A stretch of DNA of 39,948 nucleotides from Escherichia phage TM1: sequence record OM908436.1. One strand, written 5' to 3'. The notes under the pieces are model-generated. The model was given only the letters and a program-made list of their open reading frames with translations. It searched no databases and was not told the origin of the DNA. Of this stretch, positions 3,180 to 39,948 are shown piece after piece. The translations under genes were made by a program, and so were the position numbers. How positions within the stretch are numbered: the first letter of the stretch is position 1; the number at the start of each line of letters is the position of its first letter.

Positions 3180-3284
3180 AGTGATTTCCGTTTAATACAA
3201 TCGTATATCCCATAACCTATCATCCAGATAACTGGCGCTAGGCATACCAAATATCCCACACTCATAGTTAACTCCTATTAATGC

Positions 3285-3340
3285 AAGTGGTAATCTTTGA
3301 GGCCACCTATCAGTCGATGACCTCTCGTTTATCACTTAGC
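3285..3340 (-). promoter_or_regulatory. Conserved early intergenic RNA hairpin element, copy D (candidate RNase III processing site)
   Basis: Shares the AGGCCACC...GATGACCT core and flanks with copy C; the stem closes with G-U pairs only in the minus-strand transcript. Confidence 0.45.
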
Positions 3341-3354
3341 TAGGCCACGCATGG

Positions 3355-3702
3355 TTACACTTCCACCGATACAGTGGTCATCTTGCTTACAGTCAGCCCA
3401 CCAGCAAGCTCAACCGCATAGCGTATCGCCTCCTCTTTGGATTTGAAGTCCTTTCCTGCAAGGTGGTAAATATCGCCTGTTATTACCTTAGAAGGCCTGC
3501 GACTCACCGCAATAGCGTTTTCCATGGCAAGCTCACCACGGCTATACTGAGTAAGCCAGCGCTTCACCGAACTCGTTCCCACCCCGAACTTTTGGGCGGT
3601 TGCAGTCACCCTATCCATAACTCCCTCAGGCAGAGAGGTGTAGTAGTTAACAACGTTGAGTTTAAATGCTACCGAGAATACATTGCGAGTTTTAGCAGTC
3701 AT
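3355..3702 (-). CDS. Early hypothetical protein (115 aa) with a possible helix-turn-helix segment
   Basis: ORF in the early region; the segment ATAQKFGVGTSSVKRWL resembles an HTH; no T7 counterpart recalled. Confidence 0.5.
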   Translation of the reverse strand: MTAKTRNVFSVAFKLNVVNYYTSLPEGVMDRVTATAQKFGVGTSSVKRWLTQYSRGELAMENAIAVSRRPSKVITGDIYHLAGKDFKSKEEAIRYAVELAGGLTVSKMTTVSVEV

Positions 3703-3725
3703 TATTCTTTCCTTCTGTAGGTGTT

Positions 3726-3776
3726 AAGTGGTAATCACTCAGGCCACCATGTAGATGACCTGTAGTTTAACACTCA
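3726..3776 (-). promoter_or_regulatory. Conserved early intergenic RNA hairpin element, copy C (candidate RNase III site)
   Basis: Transcript AGGUCAUC-loop-GGUGGCCU gives an 8-bp stem with two G-U pairs; flanked by the conserved CTGTAGTTTAACACT block. Confidence 0.45.
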
Positions 3777-4404: not shown

Positions 4405-4433
4405 AGTTATATCCTCTCAAAGTTAAGTATGTG

Positions 4434-4485
4434 TTAGTGACTATCATTCAGGCCGCTAGAAGCTAACGACCTGTAGTTAATCACT
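4434..4485 (-). promoter_or_regulatory. Conserved early intergenic RNA hairpin element, copy A (candidate RNase III site)
   Basis: TTAGTGACTATCATTCAGGCC...GACCTGTAGTTAATCACT, same architecture as copy B. Confidence 0.45.
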
Positions 4486-4762
4486 AGTAGGCTACATCTT
4501 TAAGTGCATTCTTAAGCATGGTCTCTATGTGTGAATCCTTCACGTTAGCCATATATCCGCCTATCACTTGCACTTCTGCATTATTGCTGGCAATTATTTC
4601 CTGCGACTTTTTATGGCCCACTCCATGATAACAATCCCACATGAAGCGCTTGAACGTTAGACCATTCTCTTTGTAGCGCTCGGCTTCTTCCGCCACTCCA
4701 CGTAATAATCTTGATTCTAACTCCTTGCGGAAGGCGTCTGCTGTAGCTTTGTTCAGTCTCAT
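4484..4762 (-). CDS. First early gene, hypothetical protein (92 aa)
   Basis: ORF with Shine-Dalgarno TAAGGA 6 nt upstream of the ATG; first ORF downstream of the sigma70-like promoter and leader; no recognisable motif. Confidence 0.5.
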   Translation of the reverse strand: MRLNKATADAFRKELESRLLRGVAEEAERYKENGLTFKRFMWDCYHGVGHKKSQEIIASNNAEVQVIGGYMANVKDSHIETMLKNALKDVAY

Positions 4763-5429: not shown

Positions 5430-5780
5430 TAACTGTAGGTTTAGACTGTAGGTAGCGGCAGTACCGATGGTCGATGACTGTAGGTAGTTAGACTGTAGGT
5501 AGTGACTCAAGGTCTGATACAGATGGAGACTCAGAGGCAGACCCATAGTCCCTACCTATCGTCTCCACCTCCAGCCATAGCCGATACCTATCGTTGACCT
5601 GAAGTCTTGACCATCGGTCCAGCCTTATGATAGACTGGGGTAGGGCCTTTGGTCTGGACTTAAAGAGGGCCTATGGGGAGACTTGAGGTTCTTGAACTGT
5701 GAGATGTGGTCTCAAACTTTTGGTCCAAAACTCATCGAAGACTGTAGGTGGCAGCTACTGTAGGTCAAGGACCGTAGGTC
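5430..5780. repeat. Candidate genome termini / concatemer junction: two arrays of ACTGTAGGT-type short repeats flanking a roughly 240-bp segment that may be the collapsed direct terminal repeat
   Basis: ACTGTAGGT at about 5432, 5445, 5477, 5492 and again at 5741, 5757, 5771 (one ACCGTAGGT variant); no ORFs; sits between gene 19 and the early promoters, like the CCTAAAG repeat arrays beside the T7 terminal repeat. Confidence 0.45.
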
Positions 5781-5939: not shown

Positions 5940-6098
5940 TTAATTACACTGAGACACCAGAGAACATACGAGAGTCTCGACCCACCCGACCCACTGACTT
6001 CCAGCAGTAACGCCAGCAGTAAGTAGAACAGCAGCAAGAAACCTGTATGTAGCTCGATTGGTCGCCAGAGCTTTAAGTACAGCTTTGGTCTTTGCCAT
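5940..6098 (-). CDS. Small hydrophobic protein (52 aa) at the gene 19.5 position
   Basis: ATG preceded by AGGAGG at about 8 nt; MAKTKAVLKALATNRATYRFLAAVLLTAGV...; below the ORF-track size cutoff, hand-translated. Confidence 0.4.
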   Translation of the reverse strand: MAKTKAVLKALATNRATYRFLAAVLLTAGVTAGSQWVGWVETLVCSLVSQCN

Positions 6099-6278
6099 AT
6101 GCTACATACCTCCTGTATCTATGGTCGGTGACTATCTGTATTGGAGGGATTATGATTAATATCACCCTCCTTCCATCGGTGCAAGCCTTAGGTAAGAACT
6201 CGGAGTCTGCCTCCTAAGGTCTTGCATAAAGTCTGCATATGTATATTCACTACAGTAATACTATAAGTAACCGGGGGT

Positions 6279-8605: not shown

Positions 8606-8667
8606 AGTTGCCCTCCCGGTTTATCAGATTTCACGTAGAGTCGCCTCCACTAGTTAGTGTTAACCAT

Positions 8668-8702
8668 AAAGGCCACTACATATAGTAATGACCTTGAGTC
8701 TA
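8668..8702 (-). promoter_or_regulatory. Conserved RNA hairpin between small terminase and spanin genes (candidate RNase III site, R18.5-like)
   Basis: CATAAAGGCCACT-N10-ATGACCTTGAGTCTA; transcript forms an 11-bp stem with two G-U pairs; two near-identical copies at about 31972 and 38797. Confidence 0.55.
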
Positions 8703-8706
8703 ACAC

Positions 8707-8970
8707 TTATTGAACGCCATACCCTGTGTCATTATCCTCAGTCGCTGAAAGCACCTTATCGTACTCTGCGTTCAGGGCCTCCATATCAGCCAGCGTCTTC
8801 TCGTCCACAGACACCTTGCTTAACACAAAGTTGTGGCGAGCAAGCAGCTTCTCAATGGCGTTGTAGAGCTGAGGTGAACGCTTAGAGTCATCCCGCAGGT
8901 CTTGCAGCATGAGTCGAGCACGTTCAGTATCTAGCATTAAGAGGAACTTCTCTAAGTCCATCTGCGTCAT
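8707..8970 (-). CDS. gp18: Terminase small subunit (T7 gp18-like)
   Basis: 87 aa, position between holin and Rz-like genes; size matches T7 gp18. Confidence 0.75.
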   Translation of the reverse strand: MTQMDLEKFLLMLDTERARLMLQDLRDDSKRSPQLYNAIEKLLARHNFVLSKVSVDEKTLADMEALNAEYDKVLSATEDNDTGYGVQ

Positions 8971-11273: not shown

Positions 11274-14200
11274 CCTTGATGTGGATGCCTTGCTCCTCAA
11301 ACGTTCCAAGCAACAGCTTCTGGGTAATTGGGTCGTTCGGAACCAGTTCACGGAACGTATTATACATCCCGGTCATGTAGTCACGCTCGTTGACGCGAGT
11401 ATCAGCCTTGAGGTAGCCAGCCAAGTTGTAAGCCGAAGCGCCAACGTTAGCAGCATATCCGAAAGCTGGAACCTGCTCCAAGAAGTTACCAACAACATTC
11501 ATAACAGGGTCACTTGTAGACGCACCATACGCGATGGCGCGTTCAGGCTTCTCTGTAGGCGAACGAGGTAGGATAGACGAACGTAGCATCTTAGTGTCCT
11601 CATACCCAGCGATGCCACCCAGAATGTTAGCTACCCCAAGTGGGCCACCCAGATGTGAACTACGGGACAGAGCCGCATAACCAATCATCGTCGGGTCAAG
11701 AGCTTGCTTGAGGTATTCACGGTCTCTGCCATCCTGCATAGCGTAAGCCTTGACGTGAGCCTGAGCCATGTAGTAGATACCAGCCAGACCCATAGACATC
11801 ACAGTGGACAGAGCAGCATCCATCGCTCGGTTGTTCTTCGTGGCGTTATAGAAGGTTCGCATGGTACGTCCATTGATGGACTTGATGACGAAGTTCTTAA
11901 ACTGAAGGACAGTCTTAGCGAGAGGGCCATAAGCCTTGGCGTCCATGTTTGACAGCTTGTGGGGCCGGAGTAACGTTTCGTCAGCGATGGTGTCACCCAT
12001 ACGCCACAGGTCCATAGCCCTTGGGTCCTGACTGAACGCCTTCTTATCCTTGATGGTGTACTTCCCGTCTGGACCACGAGTCACTGACTCACGGATTAAT
12101 GACTTAATGCCCTTCCACTGCTCGTCAGATATACCAGCGGTCTTCAGCCATCTGTCATCGAACTTACGCTTACTGCCAGTCAGACTATGCTCCACGATGT
12201 CAGACAGGAAGCCTTGACGTCCAGCATCTAACAGGTAGTTGGTCGTACCGTTGAGGACTTTAGTGAACGGAGAGCGTACTGCAAGTTCGCCAGTGTAATA
12301 CTTGGCAGAGCCTAAAGCCGTAGCCGCAGGTTTACTCAAGGCGCTGTAAGACCGAAGACGGTCAATGACATCCTGTTTAGACGGACGGATTGAGTCATCA
12401 AGCTCCTTACCGAAGATAACATTGTGCAGGTCCTTAATCTCTGAGGCTCCTACCTTCTTGTTACGGAAGGCTAGGTCACGGAATATCGGGACTCCATGAA
12501 GCATTGCACGAACGTTACCACGAGCCAGCATACCACCAATCTCCGTTAAGTTCTGAACACCCATGTAGGCATTCTTAGCGAAGAACGATAGGTCAGTCAT
12601 TGTTCGCATCACGGTAGCGAAGGCTGCATCGTCAGCACCATCACGTCGAGCACGACCAGTTAGAATCTTCAGGGTGTCACGCAAGGTAGATACTTCACCT
12701 TTCAACTTTCCGTCATCACCAGCCTTGTTCATCATGGTCTCAACCAAGTCCTTCATTTCTTTCGTTGTCTTGCCTGTACCAGCCATAATAGCAATGTCAC
12801 CATTAACTCGACGGTTGTATGCCGGGACAATCTTGTCCATGTCCCACTCACGCAGGTTGTTGACACTGAAGGTTTGACCATTAGGAAGAATTATTGACAT
12901 ATCGCTGTCGAACAGGTTACGAGCCTCAAGGAAGCTGTTGTTCTCCAGACCCACCAGACCGTTGATGTTCTCTTCCATTACGGATGAACGCTCGAACTGC
13001 TCGGTGTGAGAGATACCATAAGCCTTATCGTTGGCGTACTTATCGACCGCAGCCGCAAGTCCTTCTGGAGTCAACGTAGGGTCAGCCTCTAGGAGTGCCT
13101 CGTCCACACGTTTCTTGACCTCAGGTCGAGACGCATAGCTGGTCAACCATGACTTCTTGATGGCCTCCTGTAGTGCCTCTGGACTTCCAAGCTCCTTGAT
13201 GTACAGCTCCTTCATCTGGTTGCTATACACATGTGGGACGTAGGTTCCCTTGAATCGGCTACCCGGAAAGATAGACTGAGCGTCTGGACGACCAAACATC
13301 GCCGGGTTCTCCATCATCTCACGCTTGGCGTCAAACTGGTTCTTCAGCAGGTCATAGACTTTCAGTTCTCCCGGAGTCAGTTCAGCCTTCAGGTTCCCAC
13401 TTCCGTCTTCAATAGCCATAGACACACGCTGGTAGATGTCCTGACGGAATGCGCCAGAGTCTCGCCAGAATGCTGTCTGGAAGTATGGGTCCTTGAGAGC
13501 CTCAGTAACCGCGTCGTCAATGTCGTTGTAGAACCGATGGTCAACAGCACGAAGTCTCTCGAATACGTCTGACGCAGTGGTCCCGATTTTACCTGAGGCC
13601 CCTGACTGCATACCTGTTGGTGAACGCACTAAGTCAGCAGCGACTCCGCGAATCTCAGGGTTCTCAGACCGAAGCAGCTTCAGGCCAATCTCAGTTAGCC
13701 CACCAAGGTTCACACCAGCAGCGGCACGTTCAGGCTCAATCACTTCGTCAAAGACCTTACGTGTCTTAGGGTTCAGAGGGTTTTCACCAATCAGTATTGA
13801 ACCGTCTTCTAATCGTACACTACCCGGCTCATTCGGAACGTCAGCGAACTTAACACCTTGATGACTAAAGGTCTGCTCACCTTCCTGAATAGGGAGACGA
13901 GACAGGTCCTGACCATCAACGTTACGGGCTGTCTCACGAGCTTCCAGACGTGTAGCTGGGCCAGCGAACTCGTTAGTGTTGCGACCTAAGGCTCTGCCTA
14001 GGCCATCAGCGATAGCAGTCATGCCACCACCGAAGAGAGCACCGCCAAGGATAGCTTCAGCCACATGAGCATCACCACCAGCCACTGAGGTACGGGCCAT
14101 CTCGGACACACCAGACAGTGCTCCAGATTGAGCAGCCACGGTGAACATCTTGTTGACCAGCTTACCGCCTTTACCAACCTGTCCAGCTATAGGAACGTAG

Positions 14201-18935: not shown

Positions 18936-18964
18936 AAAGTCTCCTTATAACCTTAAGGGCCTAT

Positions 18965-18987
18965 AGTCCCTATAGTGATAGTTAAGG
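18965..18987 (-). promoter_or_regulatory. Phage-RNAP promoter (phi13-like), lying in the loop of a 12-bp perfect inverted repeat
   Basis: CCTTAACTATCACTATA/GGGACT; flanked by AAGGGCCTATAG (18955-18966) and CTATAGGCCCTT (18993-19004). Confidence 0.7.
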
Positions 18988-19011
18988 TAAATCTATAGGC
19001 CCTTCAATAAG

Positions 19012-27281: not shown

Positions 27282-27342
27282 CTTGAATCTCCTCTTTAAG
27301 TTAAGACTAAAGTCTATCTTATAGTCATATCTTAGGTCCTAA

Positions 27343-27365
27343 AGTCCCTATAGTGATAGTTTAGT
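27343..27365 (-). promoter_or_regulatory. Phage-RNAP promoter (phi6.5-like)
   Basis: ACTAAACTATCACTATA/GGGACT. Confidence 0.75.
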
Positions 27366-27417
27366 GTTTCACATATGGATGACTGTTGGATTGATAGGAT
27401 ATGACTATCGGTTAGAC

Positions 27418-29775: not shown

Positions 29776-31947
29776 TCAGTGACACTCTTTCCACGTTGGC
29801 CCAATCTTACCCTCTGTATCAAGCTCACACTTGAAGTTATAAAAACGTCCGACCTCACGCATTGCTTCTTGTGCAATACGGACGACTTCTTCGGCAATCT
29901 CCTGAGTACGACACGCAATCTGCAATTCATCGTGAATCCAAGCCATTAGAGCAAAGTCACCATCCCAGCCATTACCGTAGCCAGCTTCCTCAAGTTTCTT
30001 CTCCGTCAGCACCATCCAGTGCTTACAGACAACCGCACCATCTCCTTGAAGTAGAGCGTTAAGTGCTGAGTGTGGCGACCGGATGTGAATGCGGCGACCA
30101 TCAAGTCCACGCAGCCAACGGCGTTTCCACTTAACGATGTTCTCTCCGTCCACCCACTTAGAGTCTGAGATTAACGTATTACTCACAGCTTCCCTGAGGT
30201 CCTTGATGGCTGGTGTACCCTCAATGAATTTCTTCATGAGAGCCGAACCTTCCTTCTTACCACCGCCGACTATCAGTCCAATCTTAGCGGCCCCTGCACC
30301 ATACAGGAACGCATAGATGAACGTCTTAGCGTTGTTACGGAAAGCCTCATGATCGTGGTTCGACTTATCGCGTGGGACGTTAGGTGCTAACCCAGCGTTG
30401 ACTGCGTTGGCCCAGTGGATGTCACCTTCGACCACAGTCTTCGCATAATCTCCACCATCAAACGGAGCTGCTCGGTTCCCCAGACAACGAAGCTCAAGAC
30501 CTGAAGCATCCACACCAACTTGAATCCAAGGGTCTGGCTTACCATCAGTCTTGTTCCAAGCTGCACCGAAAGCACCACGGCAAGTCTCACCATACGGAGC
30601 ACCGTTAGCAGGGACCTGAGCCATGTTTGGTGAACTATGAGTCGCACGTCCGGTTACTGCCCCGCATGGGTTGATTGAACCGTGCATACGTCCGTCTGGA
30701 CCTACAAGTTTCAACCATGCGTTCTTACCTTCAGCCGCCTGACCGATGCGCTTCTGGACTACCAGATACTCACGAACTAGCTCTACGCAAGCCTGAGCCT
30801 CTGCGTCTGGTAACTTAACGTGTTCTAACGTCTCGTCATCGACTACAGGTTTCCCGGTGTCAGTGAAGTCTACAGGCTCCCATCCACGCTCCATCAAGAC
30901 TTTCGCTAAGTGGTCTCCGCTTCCCGGATTAAACTCAACGTAAGTGATAGGTGTGAAAGGTGCTCCCTCCATCGTGTCTCGCGTATCGCGCTCACAAGGT
31001 TCAAGACCTAAGCGTTGAGCTTTGTTCTTCGGCTTCTTAAAGATGCCACCTATTTTAGGATACACGACTCGCGGATACTTCGGAAGGTCCTTGCCTGTCC
31101 GGGGGTGCTTGAAGAACTCCTTGCCTCCCTTTGGTGCGTACCAGCTACCGAAAGTCGAACGCAGCTTGTCCAGCAGCTCTGCACGTTTGACGGTGAGTTC
31201 ACGATATAAGCCTTCGACCATCTCTGTGTTCATCGGATAGCCGTTACGTTCCATCTTCGCACAGGTCCACGCAGCATCATGTTCCAGACGCAACGCATAA
31301 ATCTGGTCGAAAGCGAACTGTTCAGACTGGAAGTAATACTTGTCAGTCAGGAACTTCTTGAACAATGCCAGTGTGACCACAACGTCTTGAACGTTATAGT
31401 CCAGCATCTCCTGAGACGGGAACAACCATTCGTCCCCAGCCTTATATTCGATACCTTCAGCCTTGCACTTGGCAACGTAATCGTGTTTGTATTCACCTTT
31501 CATCTCACCAAGACGATAGCCCCAAGCCTCAAGAGACTGACGTCCCATCATCTTAGGTGGCAGACGGCCAGATTTCACCGCTCCCATGTCTGAGAACTTA
31601 ATGTTTGGATACATCAAGCGACCCAGCACCAAGGTATCAATCATCTTGTGTTTCGGGAAGTTAAAGCGCTTCCCAAAGTACAGACGTTTCAGCTTGTCAA
31701 TAGCCGGGACGTCGTAGTTGATACCGTTGTGGAATACCAGCATACCATAAGGTGATGCGGCAATCTCTTCCACTTTATGAACATACTCTTTGAAGCCACC
31801 GACGATACCGACCATCGGAGCTACCCCATACTTAAGGGTCTCATTCGACTCGGCGTTAATCAGGACCCCACAGTGAAACTGGGAGACTGTATCAAGGAGA
31901 CCGTTGGTCTCGATGTCAGAACCCCAGATACTCTTAAGGTCAAACAT
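29776..31947 (-). CDS. gp5: DNA polymerase (T7 gp5-like, family A, with 3-prime to 5-prime exonuclease domain); start at MFDLKSIW with SD GGAGGA
   Basis: DIETNGLL (exo motif), EAWGYRLGEMKGEYK, DYNVQDVVVT, GVDASGLELRCL, NAKTFIYAFLYGAG, WIHDELQ and the C-terminal H all align with T7 gp5; the ORF-track start at 31983 has no RBS. Confidence 0.92.
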   Translation of the reverse strand: MFDLKSIWGSDIETNGLLDTVSQFHCGVLINAESNETLKYGVAPMVGIVGGFKEYVHKVEEIAASPYGMLVFHNGINYDVPAIDKLKRLYFGKRFNFPKHKMIDTLVLGRLMYPNIKFSDMGAVKSGRLPPKMMGRQSLEAWGYRLGEMKGEYKHDYVAKCKAEGIEYKAGDEWLFPSQEMLDYNVQDVVVTLALFKKFLTDKYYFQSEQFAFDQIYALRLEHDAAWTCAKMERNGYPMNTEMVEGLYRELTVKRAELLDKLRSTFGSWYAPKGGKEFFKHPRTGKDLPKYPRVVYPKIGGIFKKPKNKAQRLGLEPCERDTRDTMEGAPFTPITYVEFNPGSGDHLAKVLMERGWEPVDFTDTGKPVVDDETLEHVKLPDAEAQACVELVREYLVVQKRIGQAAEGKNAWLKLVGPDGRMHGSINPCGAVTGRATHSSPNMAQVPANGAPYGETCRGAFGAAWNKTDGKPDPWIQVGVDASGLELRCLGNRAAPFDGGDYAKTVVEGDIHWANAVNAGLAPNVPRDKSNHDHEAFRNNAKTFIYAFLYGAGAAKIGLIVGGGKKEGSALMKKFIEGTPAIKDLREAVSNTLISDSKWVDGENIVKWKRRWLRGLDGRRIHIRSPHSALNALLQGDGAVVCKHWMVLTEKKLEEAGYGNGWDGDFALMAWIHDELQIACRTQEIAEEVVRIAQEAMREVGRFYNFKCELDTEGKIGPTWKECH

Positions 31948-31971
31948 GGTTAATCCTCCGTTTAGTCTAAT

Positions 31972-32008
31972 CATAAAGGCCACTCGCTGTGAATGACCTT
32001 GAGTCTAG
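31972..32008 (-). promoter_or_regulatory. Conserved RNA hairpin upstream of the DNA polymerase gene (candidate RNase III site, R4.7-like)
   Basis: CATAAAGGCCACT-N8-ATGACCTTGAGTCTA; compensatory changes relative to the copies at 8668 and 38797 preserve the stem. Confidence 0.55.
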
Positions 32009-32010
32009 AC

Positions 32011-32174
32011 CTAGAAGTCTGTACGCAAGAAGTGATACATGAACTTCCGGTTAGCTTTCTTCCATGCCTCGGAGTTGAACCGCTGGTCTCCCAGAATGTT
32101 CGACAGGCAGGTTGCTTCGTCGCTCCACCATTTGTACATGAACCGATGGTAGCGAGCTTTAAGTTTCTTTAACA

Positions 32175-32175
<1 letters not shown>
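32011..32175 (-). CDS. Possible small protein (about 54 aa, GTG start with SD GGAGGA) between primase-helicase and DNA polymerase
   Basis: GTG preceded by GGAGGA at 6 nt; VLKKLKARYHRFMYKWWSDEATCLSNILGDQRF...; hand-translated, tentative. Confidence 0.3.
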
Positions 32176-33921
<1,746 letters not shown>

Positions 33922-33968
33922 TCACTCCTTAATCACAAATGCGAACAAAGGGACAGGACTCATAGTCC

Positions 33969-33991
33969 CATCCCTAAGGTGATAGTTTAGG
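33969..33991 (-). promoter_or_regulatory. Phage-RNAP promoter-like sequence upstream of gene 4 (diverged at -4/-3)
   Basis: CCTAAACTATCACCTTA/GGGATG. Confidence 0.5.
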
Positions 33992-34202
33992 CTTTGAAGA
34001 ACTGAGCCAACTGGTCAGCTTTGGTATCAGCTTGACGCGCCTTCATACCAGCTTCCAGTGATGCGATGGTCAGCTTGTCAGCCAGCGCAGCAGCATCAGC
34101 CGCACCGTCAGCAGTCTTCTTTTCTACCTTTCGTTCCAGTACCGCAGCACGACGATAACCACGCACCACCAGACGACCAAGAAATTCGATAAGTTTAATC
34201 AT
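33987..34202 (-). CDS. Small conserved T7-like protein (71 aa)
   Basis: MIKLIEFLGRLVVRGY...QLAQFFKA resembles, from uncertain memory, a roughly 70-aa T7 protein MFKLIKKLGQLLVRMY...QLSKFFE. Confidence 0.45.
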   Translation of the reverse strand: MIKLIEFLGRLVVRGYRRAAVLERKVEKKTADGAADAAALADKLTIASLEAGMKARQADTKADQLAQFFKA

Positions 34203-34225
34203 TGAGTTGTTCTCCTTAGAGTTTA

Positions 34226-34684
34226 TTAACCGTGGTCGGAAGTGAACAGTTCATTGGTAGACAGCCAGCGTTGCAAGTCGAAACTTGGACACGCCTTAGG
34301 TGCTACGTCATGGTGTGCTTTGATTTCTGCCTGAGGATACAAGGCTTTCAGGTCAGCTAGCTTGTTGCGCAGGGAGTTCATCTGGGCTGGAGTGAAGTTA
34401 GCTTCAAACTGACCCTTAGCGTTGATTCCGCCTACAAGGCAGACGCCTACGGACCGGGAGTTCCAGTCCTTAACGTGTGACCCTACGACATTTACCGGGC
34501 GACCCTCTTGCACAGTGCCATCTCGCCTGATGATAAAGTGATAGCCTACGTCCAGCCACCCCTGCTGCTTGTGCCACATGCGGATAGTGTCTACCCCGAT
34601 GTCCTGAGACGGTGGGGTAGCCGAACAGTGAACGAAGATAGCGTCAGTCCGGGACCGTGGGTTGAATTGCACCTTACTCACCAT
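34226..34684 (-). CDS. gp3.5: Lysozyme / N-acetylmuramoyl-L-alanine amidase (T7 gp3.5-like)
   Basis: 152 aa; TDAIFVHCSATPPSQ, WLDVGYHFIIRRDGTV, SVGVCLVGG, FEANFTPAQM and HHDVAPKACPSFDL match T7 lysozyme. Confidence 0.93.
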   Translation of the reverse strand: MVSKVQFNPRSRTDAIFVHCSATPPSQDIGVDTIRMWHKQQGWLDVGYHFIIRRDGTVQEGRPVNVVGSHVKDWNSRSVGVCLVGGINAKGQFEANFTPAQMNSLRNKLADLKALYPQAEIKAHHDVAPKACPSFDLQRWLSTNELFTSDHG

Positions 34685-34901
34685 CGTACACCACCAGCTC
34701 TACAGCTACGAGGTTAAGATGACGTTGGAATCGGTTAGCATCCGTGGTGTGCATCTGGAGTAACTTATGGTTGAAGACGTGAGAGTTGCTAATCTTCACG
34801 TACACTTCGTCAGGCTTACCATGGACGATGAACGCATAGCCTACCGGGATTTTATCAATGGTCAGACGCTTACGAACGACCTTAACTTCTTGAGTCATCA
34901 C
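34674..34901 (-). CDS. Hypothetical protein (75 aa) inserted between endonuclease I and lysozyme
   Basis: ORF whose start overlaps the gp3 stop and whose end overlaps the gp3.5 start; no T7 counterpart recalled. Confidence 0.4.
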   Translation of the reverse strand: MMTQEVKVVRKRLTIDKIPVGYAFIVHGKPDEVYVKISNSHVFNHKLLQMHTTDANRFQRHLNLVAVELVVYDGE

Positions 34902-35350
34902 TTAACTCCTTTCTTCTTGGGGATGAGGATGCCTGAAGGCAGACGTACAGTCGCCTCTCGCAGCCACTCAACCGGGATGAACTTATCGGCAAACTTAAAG
35001 CCGTTCTTTTCGCACCATGCTCCATACGTGGTCTGAGACCCCTTGTATAACTTGGAGCGGGAACTTGAGAACACGAACCGAATGTCTAACTCAGGGTGCT
35101 GTTCTCGTACCAGAAGGTGCTTCTTACGGTCATCACTGTCGAAGATACCTTTGGTCTCCACGATGATACCGTTAGGAAGGATAAAGTCTGGTGTGTACTT
35201 GTGGTCGGAAGCCGGAATCACATAGTTGATATAATGGCTTTCGTACTCCGCTTTGACGCCGTTCTGTTCCAGCCACTGCTGGTTCTTGGCTTCAAGTCCA
35301 GAGCGGTAGGCACCCACAGAGTGCCCCCGTTTTGCAGACCATTGGGCCAT
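34898..35350 (-). CDS. gp3: Endonuclease I, Holliday-junction resolvase (T7 gp3-like)
   Basis: 150 aa versus 149 in T7; YTPDFILPNGIIVETKG fits the endonuclease I catalytic region. Confidence 0.85.
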   Translation of the reverse strand: MAQWSAKRGHSVGAYRSGLEAKNQQWLEQNGVKAEYESHYINYVIPASDHKYTPDFILPNGIIVETKGIFDSDDRKKHLLVREQHPELDIRFVFSSSRSKLYKGSQTTYGAWCEKNGFKFADKFIPVEWLREATVRLPSGILIPKKKGVK

Positions 35351-36048
35351 TAGAAGTTGTAATCGCCACCAGAGTTGGAGTCGTCACCACCTTCGGAACC
35401 ATCGTCACCGAAGTCATCGTCACCGAAGTCACCATCGGTTGACGCTTTGTAGCCAGTACCGAGGTCTTCATCATCACCCCAGCCACCATCGCCACCAGCA
35501 CCATCACCTTTCCACTCCTTCAGTTCTACCAGAAGGCAGGACTCAAGCTGGAGCTTAACGCTTGCACCAGTCGCAGCGTTCCACTTGAACGGCAGGACTT
35601 TAAACTTGACCTTCAGCTTTGAGCCAGCTCCAATATTCGGGACGTCACGGATTAACTTAGCATCGGTGTCGTAGAACCGTAATACGATAGGCTCTGACTT
35701 ACCATCCTTCAGGTAAGACGCGAAGCATTTAAACTTCAGGGTAACAGTACCGTCACCATTCTCAATCCACGGCATGTCGCCTTCTCGTGGTTCAATAGGC
35801 TTCTTGCCACGCTGAACCTGAGGTGGGTTCTTCTCGTGGTCTGCGAGTGCTTTCGCATACGCATCGTCGTGAATCTTCTGTAAGACATCAATCATCTTAC
35901 GGACCTTCGGGTTGCTCAGGTCGAATGTCAGGTTGACTTTGTGTTCACCACGCTCGTTGAACTTGGTGTCTGCTTTGTTAAGCCATGCGTAAGGCTCAAC
36001 GATACCAGCTACCGGAGTGGTGAAAGTCTTCAGTTGCTCTTTAGCCAT
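35350..36048 (-). CDS. gp2.5: Single-stranded DNA-binding protein (T7 gp2.5-like)
   Basis: 232 aa, same as T7 gp2.5; strongly acidic C-terminal tail ending in F. Confidence 0.88.
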   Translation of the reverse strand: MAKEQLKTFTTPVAGIVEPYAWLNKADTKFNERGEHKVNLTFDLSNPKVRKMIDVLQKIHDDAYAKALADHEKNPPQVQRGKKPIEPREGDMPWIENGDGTVTLKFKCFASYLKDGKSEPIVLRFYDTDAKLIRDVPNIGAGSKLKVKFKVLPFKWNAATGASVKLQLESCLLVELKEWKGDGAGGDGGWGDDEDLGTGYKASTDGDFGDDDFGDDGSEGGDDSNSGGDYNF

Positions 36049-36088
36049 TGGTGTAAATCTCCTAATTTAAAAGTTACGAACTGGACGT

Positions 36089-36111
36089 CTGTCCTACAGT
36101 GATAGTTTAGG
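36089..36111 (-). promoter_or_regulatory. Phage-RNAP promoter (phi2.5-like), overlapping the gene 2 stop
   Basis: CCTAAACTATCACTGTA/GGACAG. Confidence 0.6.
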
Positions 36112-36265
36112 TCTCAGGACGAATCCGTCCGACCACAAACCCAGCGTCCTCATACTCTTGGGACTTCAGTGTAGCCTCTTCAAGAGACTTTGCGTACACC
36201 GGAATCTCGAAGGACTGAACGCGACCCTCAAGCTCCACGATGTACTTCTTCTCAACCTCAGTCAT
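36107..36265 (-). CDS. gp2: Host RNA polymerase inhibitor (T7 gp2-like), 52 aa
   Basis: [14 protein letters not shown]...[11 protein letters not shown] aligns with T7 gp2 SFEVPIYAETLDEA...PAGFEVTRVRP; hand-translated. Confidence 0.65.
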
Positions 36266-36448
36266 AAACCGCGCTCCTTCCATTGGTTGTATAACGTGAT
36301 GTAGTCCTGGTTGAGAGTCTTCTCATACATCTCCCGGCACCACTCACTTGGTTTTACCATATTCCACCTCTATCGCCCAATACATTAAACGGAATAATGC
36401 GCCTACTCCAGCACAGATTAATCCGAAGTACAGAATATCATTAAGCAT
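36262..36448 (-). CDS. Two tiny tandem ORFs (34 and 32 aa) at the gene 1.8 position
   Basis: 36344-36448 [34 protein letters not shown] (hydrophobic) and 36262-36360 [32 protein letters not shown]; overlapping stop/start arrangement; tentative. Confidence 0.25.
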
Positions 36449-36878
36449 GACATTTACCTTTATGTAGGTCGAACAGCTCCTGATAGAAGGCTGCTTTGTT
36501 TAGGTCCTTCTCCATAGTAGCCAGCTCTGACTTCTTGCCAGCCCGGAGTCGATACTTCAGGACGTTACCCATGCAGAACCCACGGAACTCGCTGACAGTC
36601 ATTGACCGAGCGATAATCTCAATGGATTCCACACCGTCAAAGACCTGATAGTGAGATGGCTTACGGACGCTATCTTCCTGACCTATGGTTGTTGGCTCGG
36701 ACTGCGCCTGCTTGGTAATACTTAAGGAACTAATGGAGTGAGTGAGTGGTTCAGATAAACGGGGCCACTTAACAACAGCCACATGCTCATTCTTAACCAC
36801 TATCACCTTGCCACAGGAGCGTCCAGTGTGGGCTTCAACTGGTCCAACATAGTTAACTGTATCCCCCACCTTAACCAT
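36441..36878 (-). CDS. Protein at the gene 1.7 position (145 aa)
   Basis: Position only; T7 gp1.7 is a nucleotide kinase but I cannot confirm similarity. Confidence 0.45.
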   Translation of the reverse strand: MVKVGDTVNYVGPVEAHTGRSCGKVIVVKNEHVAVVKWPRLSEPLTHSISSLSITKQAQSEPTTIGQEDSVRKPSHYQVFDGVESIEIIARSMTVSEFRGFCMGNVLKYRLRAGKKSELATMEKDLNKAAFYQELFDLHKGKCHA

Positions 36879-37131
36879 TGATCACCTCCTTCACGAACTC
36901 AACGAACAGACGAACGCGAGGCCACTTAGTGTAGACCACTGGTACGTTGGTCTCACGCTTCTGGCGAGCCTCTTCAGCTTTACCACGAGTAATCAGAGCG
37001 AAGACTGTAGGTGACAGCTTAACGGCCTTCCCGAAGTATCCCAGCTTCTCGTTTCGCTTAATGCAAGCGAACGGGTTGTTTGACAGGTGGAAGGTATCAG
37101 TATAACGATTGAACATTAAGTTCTTAGACAT
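36871..37131 (-). CDS. T7 gp1.6-like protein
   Basis: 86 aa; DTFHLSNNPFACIKRNEKLGYFGKAVKLSPTVFAL matches my uncertain recollection of T7 gp1.6. Confidence 0.5.
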   Translation of the reverse strand: MSKNLMFNRYTDTFHLSNNPFACIKRNEKLGYFGKAVKLSPTVFALITRGKAEEARQKRETNVPVVYTKWPRVRLFVEFVKEVING

Positions 37132-37164
37132 AAGGTTTCTCCTCTTAAAGTCTGGGACCGGGTG

Positions 37165-37187
37165 TGGTCCTACAGTGATAGTTTAGT
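37165..37187 (-). promoter_or_regulatory. Phage-RNAP promoter (phi1.5/1.6-like)
   Basis: ACTAAACTATCACTGTA/GGACCA. Confidence 0.6.
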
Positions 37188-37207
37188 CCATCGCGCTGGG
37201 TCCAGAC

Positions 37208-37240
37208 GCAAAGAAACCCAGCAGTCCTAAGACCACTGGG
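37208..37240 (-). terminator. Intrinsic-terminator-like hairpin just after the ligase gene (T7 TE-like position)
   Basis: Transcript CCCAGUGGUC-UUAG-GACUGCUGGG followed by UUUCUUU; 10-bp stem with two G-U pairs; T7 has its early terminator after gene 1.3. Confidence 0.5.
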
Positions 37241-37251
37241 TTGACATTTAG

Positions 37252-38310
37252 TTAACTCTTAACGGTTGGATTGTCTTCCGTCCCGCGCCAGCACTTGAAG
37301 CTAGGGTGACGAAGGGAACCATCAGGGAAGCGCTCCATGAATAGGACCTCACACTGCCATCCTTCATAGGCGTGGTTGTCACCGTTTAGCTCCTGAGTCT
37401 TAACAGCTAGTGTAAACTCGTCCTTCTGTTCTTCAGTCAGACCACAGGCGTTAACCACCATGCCATCCTCAAGTAGCACCTCGAAGCCGATGACCTTACC
37501 TTCGTTCGCCTTACCAGGAGTCCCCCACACGAGGCCGCACACGGTCCCGTCGATGGTCTCCTCAGGCTTCATCTTCCACATGCCTGACTTCTTGCCACGC
37601 TTGTACTTACCCAGCGGGTCCTTGACTACCAGACCCTCGTGTCCTTCCAGACGCTTCTGTTCGTACAGGGAGTTGAGCGACTCAAGGTCATAGACCGTGT
37701 GTGACTCAGACAGAACCCAGTCGATTTCAGGGAAGTATTTCTGGAGGAGAGGGACGATAGCTTCGGCCTTCAGGCGTGTGACGCTATGGATAGGACCTTC
37801 GGCTTTCGGGTCATTGATGATGTTAAGGTCCACGATACCATAGACGACTACCTTGATGTTCCGTGTTGCCAGCCAGAATGGGACTTTAGTTCCTCTGCCG
37901 GGATAGCACTCAGCAAAATCCTCGTTGCTTGGCTTCAGCCACTTCGTTCTTATGAGACCTGAAGACGTATTGAAGTCCACTCCTTTTACCATGACCTCAC
38001 CATCAATCATCAGGCCCGTACCTTCGTAGCCAGCCTGTTTAAGGAACCATCGCCAGTCACTAGCCCTTTGCTGATCTTCAACGATGTTGTCGATGTTGGT
38101 CAGGACTGATAGCCACTCAAGTGCTGGAAGAGGTTTAGACTCACGGCTCAACCATTGAGTCTCGCCTGTTGGGAAGACTGGGAGGTTCAACCGGACACCA
38201 TCGTACTTCACTTCAGCTTCCAGCGACCCAGCTGCCTCCAAAGCCTTCTTAACTCCAGACTCAGAGTAGTCTACAGCGCGGTGCGGGTTAGTTTTAATAG
38301 TCGTAGTCAT
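37252..38310 (-). CDS. gp1.3: ATP-dependent DNA ligase (T7 gp1.3-like)
   Basis: 352 aa versus 359 in T7; N-terminal IKTNP and adenylation motif KYDG. Confidence 0.88.
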   Translation of the reverse strand: MTTTIKTNPHRAVDYSESGVKKALEAAGSLEAEVKYDGVRLNLPVFPTGETQWLSRESKPLPALEWLSVLTNIDNIVEDQQRASDWRWFLKQAGYEGTGLMIDGEVMVKGVDFNTSSGLIRTKWLKPSNEDFAECYPGRGTKVPFWLATRNIKVVVYGIVDLNIINDPKAEGPIHSVTRLKAEAIVPLLQKYFPEIDWVLSESHTVYDLESLNSLYEQKRLEGHEGLVVKDPLGKYKRGKKSGMWKMKPEETIDGTVCGLVWGTPGKANEGKVIGFEVLLEDGMVVNACGLTEEQKDEFTLAVKTQELNGDNHAYEGWQCEVLFMERFPDGSLRHPSFKCWRGTEDNPTVKS

Positions 38311-38572
38311 TACATTTTCTCCATGTGTCGAGTTGGTTAGCGAGACCGTTAAGGAAGCCTGTTGCAGTGTTATACAGTACGTCTTCAGAGTAGTGTCCGA
38401 AGGTCTTAAGCGCGAAGATGTTACCCGCTCTGTCCTCGACTTGAAGTCTCATGCACTCCATCCGAAGATGCGCGTCATACCAGTCCTGCTGTATCACGCA
38501 GAAGTCTAACTGATATAGTCTGTTACACGCTGCTTTGAAAGCGTTTAGGTTGCCACTATAAAGTCGGCCCAT
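38294..38572 (-). CDS. gp1.2: T7 gp1.2-like protein (inhibitor of host dGTPase)
   Basis: MGRLYSGNLNAFKAACNRLYQLDFCVIQQDWYDAHLRMECMRLQVEDRAGN is near-identical to T7 gp1.2 MGRLYSGNLAAFKAATNKLFQLDLAVIYDDWYDAYTRKDCIRLRIEDRSGN. Confidence 0.8.
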   Translation of the reverse strand: MGRLYSGNLNAFKAACNRLYQLDFCVIQQDWYDAHLRMECMRLQVEDRAGNIFALKTFGHYSEDVLYNTATGFLNGLANQLDTWRKCNDYDY

Positions 38573-38576
38573 AGCG

Positions 38577-38756
38577 TTATGCTCCTACGAAGTACTTCTC
38601 TTGGTTTACCAGCGAGTCTTTGCCTTCAGCGTTGCGGAAAGCGCCCTTAACACCACCGCCACGCCTAGTCTTGTTCAGCTTGCGACCCTTCGGAATGTAA
38701 CCTTCAGTCTTCTGACGTTCACGGATGCGCTCGAAGTTGATAGTGTTCTGATACAT
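38577..38756 (-). CDS. gp1.1: T7 gp1.1-like small basic protein (59 aa)
   Basis: GYIPKGRKLNKTRRGGG resembles T7 gp1.1 EATKGRKLNKTKRDRSH; hand-translated, below the ORF-track cutoff. Confidence 0.5.
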   Translation of the reverse strand: MYQNTINFERIRERQKTEGYIPKGRKLNKTRRGGGVKGAFRNAEGKDSLVNQEKYFVGA

Positions 38757-38796
38757 GTGGTTAAATCTCCAGTAGTTTACGTTATGTTAGGGTTAA

Positions 38797-38837
38797 TCAT
38801 GAAGGCCACGACTTTTAGTCATGACCTTGAGTCTAAT
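38797..38837 (-). promoter_or_regulatory. Conserved RNA hairpin at +5 to +40 of the phi1.1-like transcript (candidate RNase III site, R1.1-like)
   Basis: CATGAAGGCCACG-N10-ATGACCTTGAGTCTA; 11-bp stem with two G-U pairs on the transcript strand. Confidence 0.55.
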
Positions 38838-38856
38838 CCTATAGTGATAGTTTAGA
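38834..38856 (-). promoter_or_regulatory. Phage-RNAP promoter (phi1.1-like)
   Basis: TCTAAACTATCACTATA/GGATTA; overlaps the stop of the 157-aa ORF. Confidence 0.65.
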
Positions 38857-39325
38857 TGACGATGCGAGGCCTTACCTGCATGACTGCCTGAATCGCTCGC
38901 TCACGTTCTGCCTCCTCGCCGTAGACTTGCATCAGCTCGTAGTCATACTGGATGCGACCGTCGATGTCTCCGAGTCGGTACTCGAAGTCCTTAGAAGACC
39001 CGTCTGTGTGATACTGGTGGATGGTAATCGTCCGGTCGTCACGCTTAGTCACCTCGAAGTAGTGAACCACCTTTCCACACTTTACAAGGCCTATCTTGAA
39101 CTCAGTTGGCTGATACTTACCATCGAACAGTGCCTTGAACTTGATGCCGACCATACGCTTGATGGTTACAGCCGCTGGTGGCGCTAGGCGCTTACGCTCT
39201 GACTGGTTAAGCTTATCTCGAAGTCTTTGGTGCTCCCTGTTTGCCATCTCAAGGTTGGTGTCCTGCTTCTTAACTAACTTTTCCAGTTCTGCGATACGTG
39301 CTTTAAGTTTTGACTTACCGAACAT
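38852..39325 (-). CDS. Hypothetical protein (157 aa) with N-terminal coiled-coil-like region, between RNAP and gp1.1
   Basis: Heptad-like, charged N-terminus KLKARIAELEKLVKKQDTNLEMANREHQRLRDKL; T7 has no gene of this size here. Confidence 0.5.
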   Translation of the reverse strand: MFGKSKLKARIAELEKLVKKQDTNLEMANREHQRLRDKLNQSERKRLAPPAAVTIKRMVGIKFKALFDGKYQPTEFKIGLVKCGKVVHYFEVTKRDDRTITIHQYHTDGSSKDFEYRLGDIDGRIQYDYELMQVYGEEAERERAIQAVMQVRPRIVI

Positions 39326-39403
39326 AGGGTTAACCTCTTCTGCGTTGGACTAAAGTGAATACTGCTAGTGCTCCCAGCCACAAGGCCAGTAACTGTAGGT
39401 GTG

Positions 39404-39619
39404 TCATTTGGTCTGCTCCAGCTTGGACACTACGTCTTTCAGGTATTTCTCGTGGCTGGATTCCACAAGATAGACGAGGGTCTTGAATGGGACGTTAAGC
39501 TGCTTTGACATCTCGGTAGGAATGACCGTGGTCTTCACCAGACCCTTGCCGTTGTGTTCTGTTACGGTCACGATTTGAGTCCCACCCTTTACGCCAGCCT
39601 GCTTGTGTGCAAATTTCAT
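39404..39619 (-). CDS. Hypothetical protein (71 aa) immediately downstream of the RNAP gene
   Basis: ORF starting 13 nt after the RNAP stop; no recognised motif. Confidence 0.45.
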   Translation of the reverse strand: MKFAHKQAGVKGGTQIVTVTEHNGKGLVKTTVIPTEMSKQLNVPFKTLVYLVESSHEKYLKDVVSKLEQTK

Positions 39620-39631
39620 AACTCTCTCCTG

Positions 39632-39948
39632 TTAAGCGAATGCAAAGTCTGAAGACAAGATGTCTTCGATATTCAGTTTACCTTTCTTCGGAAGCTCAGG
39701 CAATTTGTCGCGCTGGCTCTCGTGGAGCTGGTATTCAAACTGCTCGTAGAAGTCAAGCAGCACATCGTTATCGCGGTAGGTCTCTACCATCGTCTCACGG
39801 ACGCCACGGAACAGATACTCAGCGTCAGCCGGGATGGTCCCGAAGCTATCGTGAATCACTGCGAATGACATCACGCCATATTTGCGGTGCGTGTGGACTA
39901 CAGTCTTGCGGAGGTGGCTACCATCTTGTGAGTGGACGAAGTTCGGGC
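39632..39948 (-). CDS. gp1: T7-type RNA polymerase, C-terminal part (stop codon 39632-39634); same gene as 1-2492
   Basis: HDSFGTIPADAEYLFRGVRETMVETY...LHESQRDKLPELPKKGKLNIEDILSSDFAFA matches the T7 RNAP C-terminus HDSFGTIPADAANLFKAVRETMVDTY...LRDILESDFAFA. Confidence 0.92.
   Translation of the reverse strand, partial: PNFVHSQDGSHLRKTVVHTHRKYGVMSFAVIHDSFGTIPADAEYLFRGVRETMVETYRDNDVLLDFYEQFEYQLHESQRDKLPELPKKGKLNIEDILSSDFAFA
39822..39948. repeat. Exact duplicate of window bases 1-127 (assembly overlap)
   Basis: See feature at 1-127. Confidence 0.8.

Follow-up and report, generated by a model that had tools for sequence, protein, structure and literature searches.

The closest described relatives of the elements reported here are the RNase III sites of bacteriophage T7, ten in number and individually named (PMC6938266), where cleavage sites often come after a promoter (PMC6938266). 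The RNA of one of them, R1.1, which is the standard RNase III substrate (Nicholson laboratory), is cut at one phosphodiester (PMC4858673), and its mutagenesis gave the proximal, middle and distal boxes as recognition determinants and 11 bp as the minimum helix (PMC1540722). Internal loops restrict cleavage to one strand, leaving protective hairpins at 3' ends (PMC1540722, PMC3867540). T7 is able to grow without RNase III (PMC6938266), and the fitness value of such sites is thus modest or unclear. Sites in the E. coli rRNA precursor and in phage lambda are likewise substrates of host RNase III and span about two helical turns, but usually both strands of a long continuous helix are cut there, and they have no sequence in common with the motif described below. 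As T7 cleavage coordinates we take, from Dunn and Studier (1983), 890, 1468, 3138, 5887, 6448, 11203, 13892, 18563, 27281 and 36856; the T7 genome read at these coordinates shows the matching hairpin type at all ten. RNase III features are annotated neither in the T7 records (NC_001604, V01146) nor in those of phages K1F and EcoDS1.

Here, we analyze a 39,948-nucleotide stretch of Escherichia phage TM1 (OM908436.1; henceforth termed the window), in which an initial annotation made from the letters of the DNA had described three near-identical hairpins at T7 RNase III positions. The last 10 kb of the window are 90–93% identical to many Kayfunavirus genomes (K1F-like, T7 group, Studiervirinae), and judged by this similarity the source genome is a Kayfunavirus, i.e., a K1F-like relative of T7. 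The gene strand is the minus strand. The RNA polymerase gene is split over the window ends (39632–39948 and 1 to ~2550, minus strand), and since the C-terminus of the polymerase (PNFVHSQDGSHLRK...DFAFA*) leaves the window at its high end, the window holds the genome in circularly permuted form. Among the neighboring genes, PHROG searches confirmed the Rz-like spanin gp18.5, the terminase small subunit gp18 and the Ocr-like gp0.3. The labels of the gp4.3-like and gp1.1 open reading frames (ORFs) come from EcoDS1, and both ORFs matched PHROG families that have no assigned function.

The three repeats are real and occupy 8665–8702, 31972–32007 and 38798–38835. The pattern CATAAAGGCCAC-N-ATGACCTTGAGTCTA is exact in the first (spacer of 11 nt) and the second (spacer of 9 nt) and had matches in none of 100 dinucleotide shuffles, so the repeat is not a product of chance. 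The copy at 38798–38835 reads CATGAAGGCCAC, with one G-for-A change (CATGAAGG) and a spacer of 11 nt, and the 15-mer ATGACCTTGAGTCTA is shared by all three without a mismatch. Minor corrections to the initial annotation concern the spacers, which are present but measure 9–11 nt instead of 8–10 nt, and the first copy, which begins at 8665 and not at about 8668. The genomic contexts that it gave hold throughout: the copies lie at the 18|18.5 junction before the spanin gene, before the DNA polymerase gene, and between a phi1.1-like promoter and gp1.1. Its count of three copies was too low, as three further ones (4432–4485, 3723–3774 and 3282–3336) bring the total to six, all of them intergenic and on the minus (coding) strand (Table 1).

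Table 1. RNase III-type hairpins, predicted cuts, the adjoining promoter and candidate sites in the window. CM, covariance model score; fold, folding energy of the transcript-strand RNA with its z-score; all sites, cuts and functions are predictions from comparison and folding.
Feature	Position	Strand	CM and fold	Context and remarks	Position in relatives
R1.1-position hairpin	38785..38840	-	60 bits, E 2.4e-14; -20.2 kcal/mol, z -4.8	Aligns to T7 R1.1; begins at ~+2 of the transcript from the adjoining phage promoter	K1F 5568-5623; EcoDS1 6050-6105
Predicted single cut, R1.1 position	38799/38798	-		CCUUCAU^GAUUAAC, by homology to T7 R1.1; 42 nt ahead of gp1.1 ATG (38756)	
Phage-RNAP promoter, phi1.1 equivalent	38838..38860	-		GTCATCTAAACTATCACTATAGG; directly upstream of the hairpin	
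R4.7-equivalent hairpin	31959..32012	-	64.4 bits; -19.4 kcal/mol, z -3.7	Between gp4.3-like ORF and DNA polymerase gene 5; ORF stop codon overlaps lower stem	K1F 12855-12906 (identical); EcoDS1 13043-13096
Predicted cut, R4.7 equivalent	31973/31972	-		25 nt ahead of ATG 31947	
R18.5-equivalent hairpin	8652..8707	-	65.3 bits; -23.4 kcal/mol, z -5.6	Between terminase small subunit gene 18 and spanin gene 18.5	K1F 36448-36503 (identical)
Predicted cut, R18.5 equivalent	8666/8665	-		60 nt ahead of ATG 8605	
Fourth site, early region, R0.3 position	4432..4485	-	51.5 bits; -25.4 kcal/mol, z -5.6	Directly upstream of ocr-like gene 0.3; variant core ACAGGUC..GGCCUGA, as in T7 R1	K1F 1032-1086
Fifth site, early region	3723..3774	-	48.2 bits; -22.2 kcal/mol, z -3.7	Upstream of 115-aa ORF 3355-3702; variant core ACAGGUC..GGCCUGA	
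Sixth site, early region	3282..3336	-	31.1 bits, E 4.6e-6; -22.4 kcal/mol, z -4.5	Most diverged of the six, GAGAGGUC..GGCCUCAAAGA; upstream of small early ORFs	K1F 1768-1822; EcoDS1 1492-1546
Candidate R3.8-type site	33930..33990	-		Found by regular expression; upstream of primase/helicase gene 4	
Candidate R6.5/R13-type site	18940..19005	-		12-bp stem AAGGGCCUAUAG/CUAUAGGCCCUU encloses a phi13-like promoter in its loop	

On the transcript, each repeat is the top of a hairpin that measures ~55 nt in full. The 10–11-bp stem reported initially thus corresponds to the upper stem, of 10–12 bp, of a two-tier structure; that description had included neither the lower stem, which covaries, nor the conserved loop between the stems, nor the three extra copies. 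The upper stem (AAGGUCAU...GUGGCCUU) is conserved and stands above a likewise conserved asymmetric internal loop with ACUC on the 5' side and UAUGA on the 3' side. Below it, the lower stem of 6–8 bp differs in sequence from copy to copy (GGaUUAG/UUAACC, GUCUAG/UUAGAC and AGUGUUAG/UUAACACU), and these differences are compensatory. The two G-U pairs noted per stem are found as two U.G pairs in each upper stem on the transcript (minus) strand, where the stem tops also differ in the compensatory manner that had been described (UUC/GAG, UUAC/GUAG and UGACU/AGUCG). The upper stems of the three main copies contain 10, 11 and 12 standard pairs plus a C.U position that is also present in R1.1, and all three copies reach the minimum of ~11 bp between cut site and terminal loop. 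Minus-strand RNAs of these copies fold with -19.4 to -23.4 kcal/mol (z -3.7 to -5.6) and plus-strand RNAs with -10.2 to -17.6 kcal/mol (z -0.4 to -2.5); the latter folds are much weaker because the U.G pairs of the transcript turn into A-C mismatches on that strand. In minimum free energy and centroid folds, all six sites adopt a two-tier hairpin of about two helical turns. Rfam was searched both at the gathering threshold and at E≤1 with no hits, and it appears to be without a model for the T7 RNase III sites.

The assignment to T7 RNase III positions made in the initial annotation is borne out both by alignment to T7 sites and by synteny with R1.1, R4.7 and R18.5. We aligned the three main window copies with T7 R0.3, R0.5, R1, R1.1, R1.3, R4.7 and R18.5 (10 sequences). 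The alignment has the consensus ..ACTCAAGGTCAT...GTGGCCTTTATGATTA.. and 10 invariant columns, which include the whole AAGG..CCUU / UC..GG / AU..GU part of the upper stem, and RNAalifold folded the sequences into one common two-tier structure, of whose 17 pairs 10 show double changes. The core ACUCAAGGUC(A/G)(U/C)...GUGGCCUU(U/C)AUGAUUA is common to the window sites and T7 R1.1, R0.5, R4.7 and R18.5, and the first eight upper-stem pairs (AAGGUCAU/GUGGCCUU) are identical to those of T7 R1.1. With the boxes as defined in PMC1540722 and PMC4858673, and their exact positions deduced by us, all three R1.1 boxes (proximal, middle and distal) are represented among the upper-stem pairs in the window. 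Coordinate 5887 falls in T7 R1.1 just after CCUUUAU, and the cut sites listed in Table 1 are predicted from this position by homology.

Further features shared with T7 are the two-tier hairpin, the asymmetric internal loop, the coding-strand orientation and the junctions themselves, i.e., promoter|1.1, the region before the polymerase gene, and 18|18.5. The R1.1-position hairpin starts at the start of the phi1.1 transcript, as does the one after T7 phi1.1A. Its promoter is one of ~11 copies of the consensus CTAAACTATCACTATAGG, and the EcoDS1 record lists a 'phi' promoter at the matching place. The window genome has one phi1.1 promoter, whereas T7 has two. The lower-stem and loop sequences of the window sites also differ from those of T7, with compensation. 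Genes 4.5 and 4.7 are missing from the window genome, and the R4.7 equivalent therefore abuts gene 5. T7 R1 has the same variant core, ACAGGUC...GGCCUGA, as the sites at 4432–4485 and 3723–3774; T7 R1, however, lies upstream of gene 1, whereas the window sites with this core precede gene 0.3 or other early ORFs and not the RNA polymerase gene. In contrast to T7, no canonical site was found in the window genome directly ahead of gene 1 (T7 R1) or ahead of the ligase gene (T7 R1.3), and the gp0.7 kinase is absent.

During T7 infection, the gp0.7 protein kinase phosphorylates and stimulates RNase III. A tblastn search of the whole window gave no gp0.7 homologue (best E = 1.0), and the window genome has kept its RNase III sites despite the absence of this kinase. 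The early region has two further peculiarities. The R0.3-type site and ocr are preceded by a 92-aa ORF at 4484–4762 (minus; phrog_9817, of no assigned function), so that the first early cistron differs from that of T7, where it is gene 0.3. The 115-aa early ORF at 3355–3702 (minus) has a weak match to phrog_151 (transposase-type, HTH; E 2.6e-4) and is flanked by RNase III-type sites on both sides.

For a census of such elements, a covariance model of 53 positions and 17 pairs was trained on the 10 aligned sequences (seven T7 sites and the three window copies). With filters off, it found six matches in the window with 31–65 bits, all intergenic and on the coding strand. The next-best match (14 bits) was on the opposite strand of the 8652–8707 copy, and plus-strand scores did not exceed 14 bits. 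In the T7 control, every match above 16 bits was an RNase III site, namely one of the seven used for training or R6.5, which was not among them and scored above 30 bits; hence there were no false positives in T7. In K1F and EcoDS1, the model matched at the same gene junctions as in the window. We additionally scanned IMG/VR viral contigs with a loose pattern, which also hit many chance loci on non-T7-like contigs; these were removed by the model, and the filtered set comprised 77 sites, with loci L101–L124 left out.

The 77 sites, in an alignment fitted to the covariance model, have 96% of cells paired, compared to 78% after shuffling and 26–49% with the partner slid. Compensatory double changes occur in 15 of the 17 pairs, and none of 500 shuffles reached the observed values. 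The six window copies alone, fitted to the model in the same way, are 96% paired and have eight pairs with double changes. Conservation of the core is partly circular, since the IMG/VR retrieval pattern fixes part of it; the lower stem and the stem top, where most of the covariation sits, are free of this constraint. Across the 77 sites, substitutions pass through G-U intermediates (UG to CG, AU to GU).

In sequence, structure, strand, synteny and covariation, the hairpins correspond to T7 RNase III sites, to which they are homologous, and they are very probably T7-type RNase III processing signals. From this homology we infer that RNase III cleaves here, at which position it does so, and that cleavage affects mRNA stability; a literature search found no cleavage or transcript-end data for this phage or any other Kayfunavirus. 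According to this proposal, the minus strand would be transcribed into long polycistronic RNAs in which each site folds into a hairpin of about two turns, and host RNase III would bind the helix. The window sites have the T7-type internal loop, unlike the rRNA and lambda sites, which predicts a single cut (PMC3867540). As the loop would admit just one strand to a catalytic site, the enzyme would cut a single time, in the 3' arm of the loop (..CCUUUAU^GAUUA..). The upstream mRNA would keep the hairpin at its 3' end and may thereby be protected against 3'-to-5' exonucleases, and the downstream mRNAs for gp1.1, DNA polymerase and spanin would begin with short 5'-monophosphate leaders (42, 25 and 60 nt, respectively) that contain the ribosome-binding site. 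The missing gp0.7 homologue and the growth of T7 in the absence of RNase III weigh against the proposal.

The sites form subfamilies: the middle and late sites have CUCAAGGUC/GGCCUUUAUG, two early sites have ACAGGUC/GGCCUGA, and the remaining early one has diverged further. It is conceivable, though unlikely, that the sites are more than marks for mRNA processing, with the subfamilies setting cleavage efficiencies (on transcripts of host versus phage RNA polymerase, and with no gp0.7) and/or with a role at the DNA level, either as a liability or signal for defences that sense palindromes, such as Lamassu/DdmABC, or at the phi1.1 replication origin.

Stable structures just upstream of ribosome-binding sites could also act independently of RNase III, as elements of RNA stability or translation that protect 3' ends or are served by another nuclease such as RNase E and only look like T7 sites, and the growth of T7 without RNase III would agree with such a role (PMC6938266). 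We regard this explanation as quite improbable, because the pairs that define R1.1 recognition (PMC1540722) are conserved base for base, and because the single-stranded loop around the cut site, which a merely stabilizing stem would not need, is conserved as well.

Even less credible is a primary function of the DNA itself, in which the hairpins would be palindromic sites for a DNA-binding protein, a replication origin or recombination, and the RNA fold would be incidental. In T7, the primary origin is located in the phi1.1 region and has an RNase III site within it, which would be in keeping with such a function. Support also comes from the report that palindromes of T7 RNase III sites serve as DNA hairpin signals for DdmABC/Lamassu in either orientation (PMC11707656), so that an action of the palindromes as DNA is known as a side-effect. 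Yet six of six copies are oriented alike relative to transcription, RNA of the transcript strand folds much better, the substitutions are mediated by G-U pairs, as expected of RNA, and the sequence of the asymmetric loop is not palindromic. The first three of these points contradict a primary DNA-level function. A protein-binding DNA site without conserved RNA structure, which the initial annotation had named as the finding that would speak against its proposal, is at odds with the covariation of the structure in the 77 sites and the six copies. Plus-strand RNA and a symmetric DNA site were both rejected on the asymmetry of the folds and the plus-strand model scores of at most 14 bits.

G+C-containing hairpins between genes might finally bring to mind transcription terminators or pause sites of phage or host RNA polymerase, an idea that can practically be discarded, since UAUGAUUA and no U-tract follows all three stems, one site is located at +2 of a promoter and ahead of the genes that it drives, and the homologous T7 sites are not terminators, TE and Tphi being annotated elsewhere. 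Intrinsic terminators, in the sense of a G+C-rich hairpin with a U-run, were rejected on the missing U-tract after the three stems, and a terminator scan of 31000–39948, a range that contains two of the main hairpins and not the copy at 8652–8707, made four terminator-like calls, none of them at these two.

As T7-type RNase III processing signals, the sites are orthologues of textbook T7 sites and as such ordinary, bordering on the already known; our understanding of RNase III and of T7-like phages is unchanged by them. They have some value for annotation, as there is no Rfam family and no annotation in the inspected T7, K1F and EcoDS1 records, and the covariance model parts known T7 sites cleanly from background. 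They also predict where the mRNAs of gp1.1, DNA polymerase, spanin, Ocr and other early genes begin or end, which is of use to those who engineer therapeutic phages of the K1F type or interpret their transcriptomes, and they flag palindromes of the kind reported as Lamassu triggers.

Ahead of gene 1, the search of the window found no canonical site. A promoter upstream of the RNA polymerase gene (2566–2588, minus) is directly followed by ACTCAAGGTC, the 5' half of the motif (region 2556–2588). A 3' partner (GGCCTT) is missing, the fold is not significant (z +0.9), and the half-motif may be the remnant of an R1-type site. Ahead of the ligase gene, there is no intergenic space that could house an R1.3 equivalent.

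T7 R3.8, R6.5 and R13 overlap phage promoters, and the window contains candidates for both arrangements, one a hairpin flanked by CCCUUUGUUCGCAUU and the other with the phi13 promoter in the hairpin loop; the covariance model detects neither, and both were picked out by resemblance. In the first (33930..33990), a 12-bp hairpin and then CCCUUUGUUCGCAUU come after a variant promoter (..CACCTTAGGGA), and the 3' flank CCCTTTGTTCGCATT is identical to that of T7 at R3.8. Since the model does not find this element, we rank it as weaker evidence. The stem of the second (18940..19005) is flanked by CUUAU/AUAAG, and promoter-in-loop sites with the same flanks are matched by the model in other phages and in T7 R6.5, which makes it a candidate R6.5/R13-type site. 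In three IMG/VR loci (L044:8721-8795, L047:4591-4664 and L096:14095-14162), the terminal loops hold a complete phage promoter, of T7, T3 or another type; placement of the promoter in the loop, as in R6.5, is thus conserved in other T7-group phages with different promoter specificities.

An 11-nt inverted repeat in the window, AUAGUCAUAUC/GAUAUGACUAU at 27321–27331 and 27398–27408 (minus), brackets a phi6.5-like promoter at 27347–27369; this may be a hairpin with the promoter in its loop, as in T7 R6.5, but the conserved RNase III core is absent from it. Two further observations concern the promoters themselves. That of gene 4 (33967–33990, minus) is a variant with ..CTAAACTATCACCTTAGGGA in place of the consensus ..CACTATAGG, and those at 37169–37191 and 36093–36115 have CACTGTAGG.
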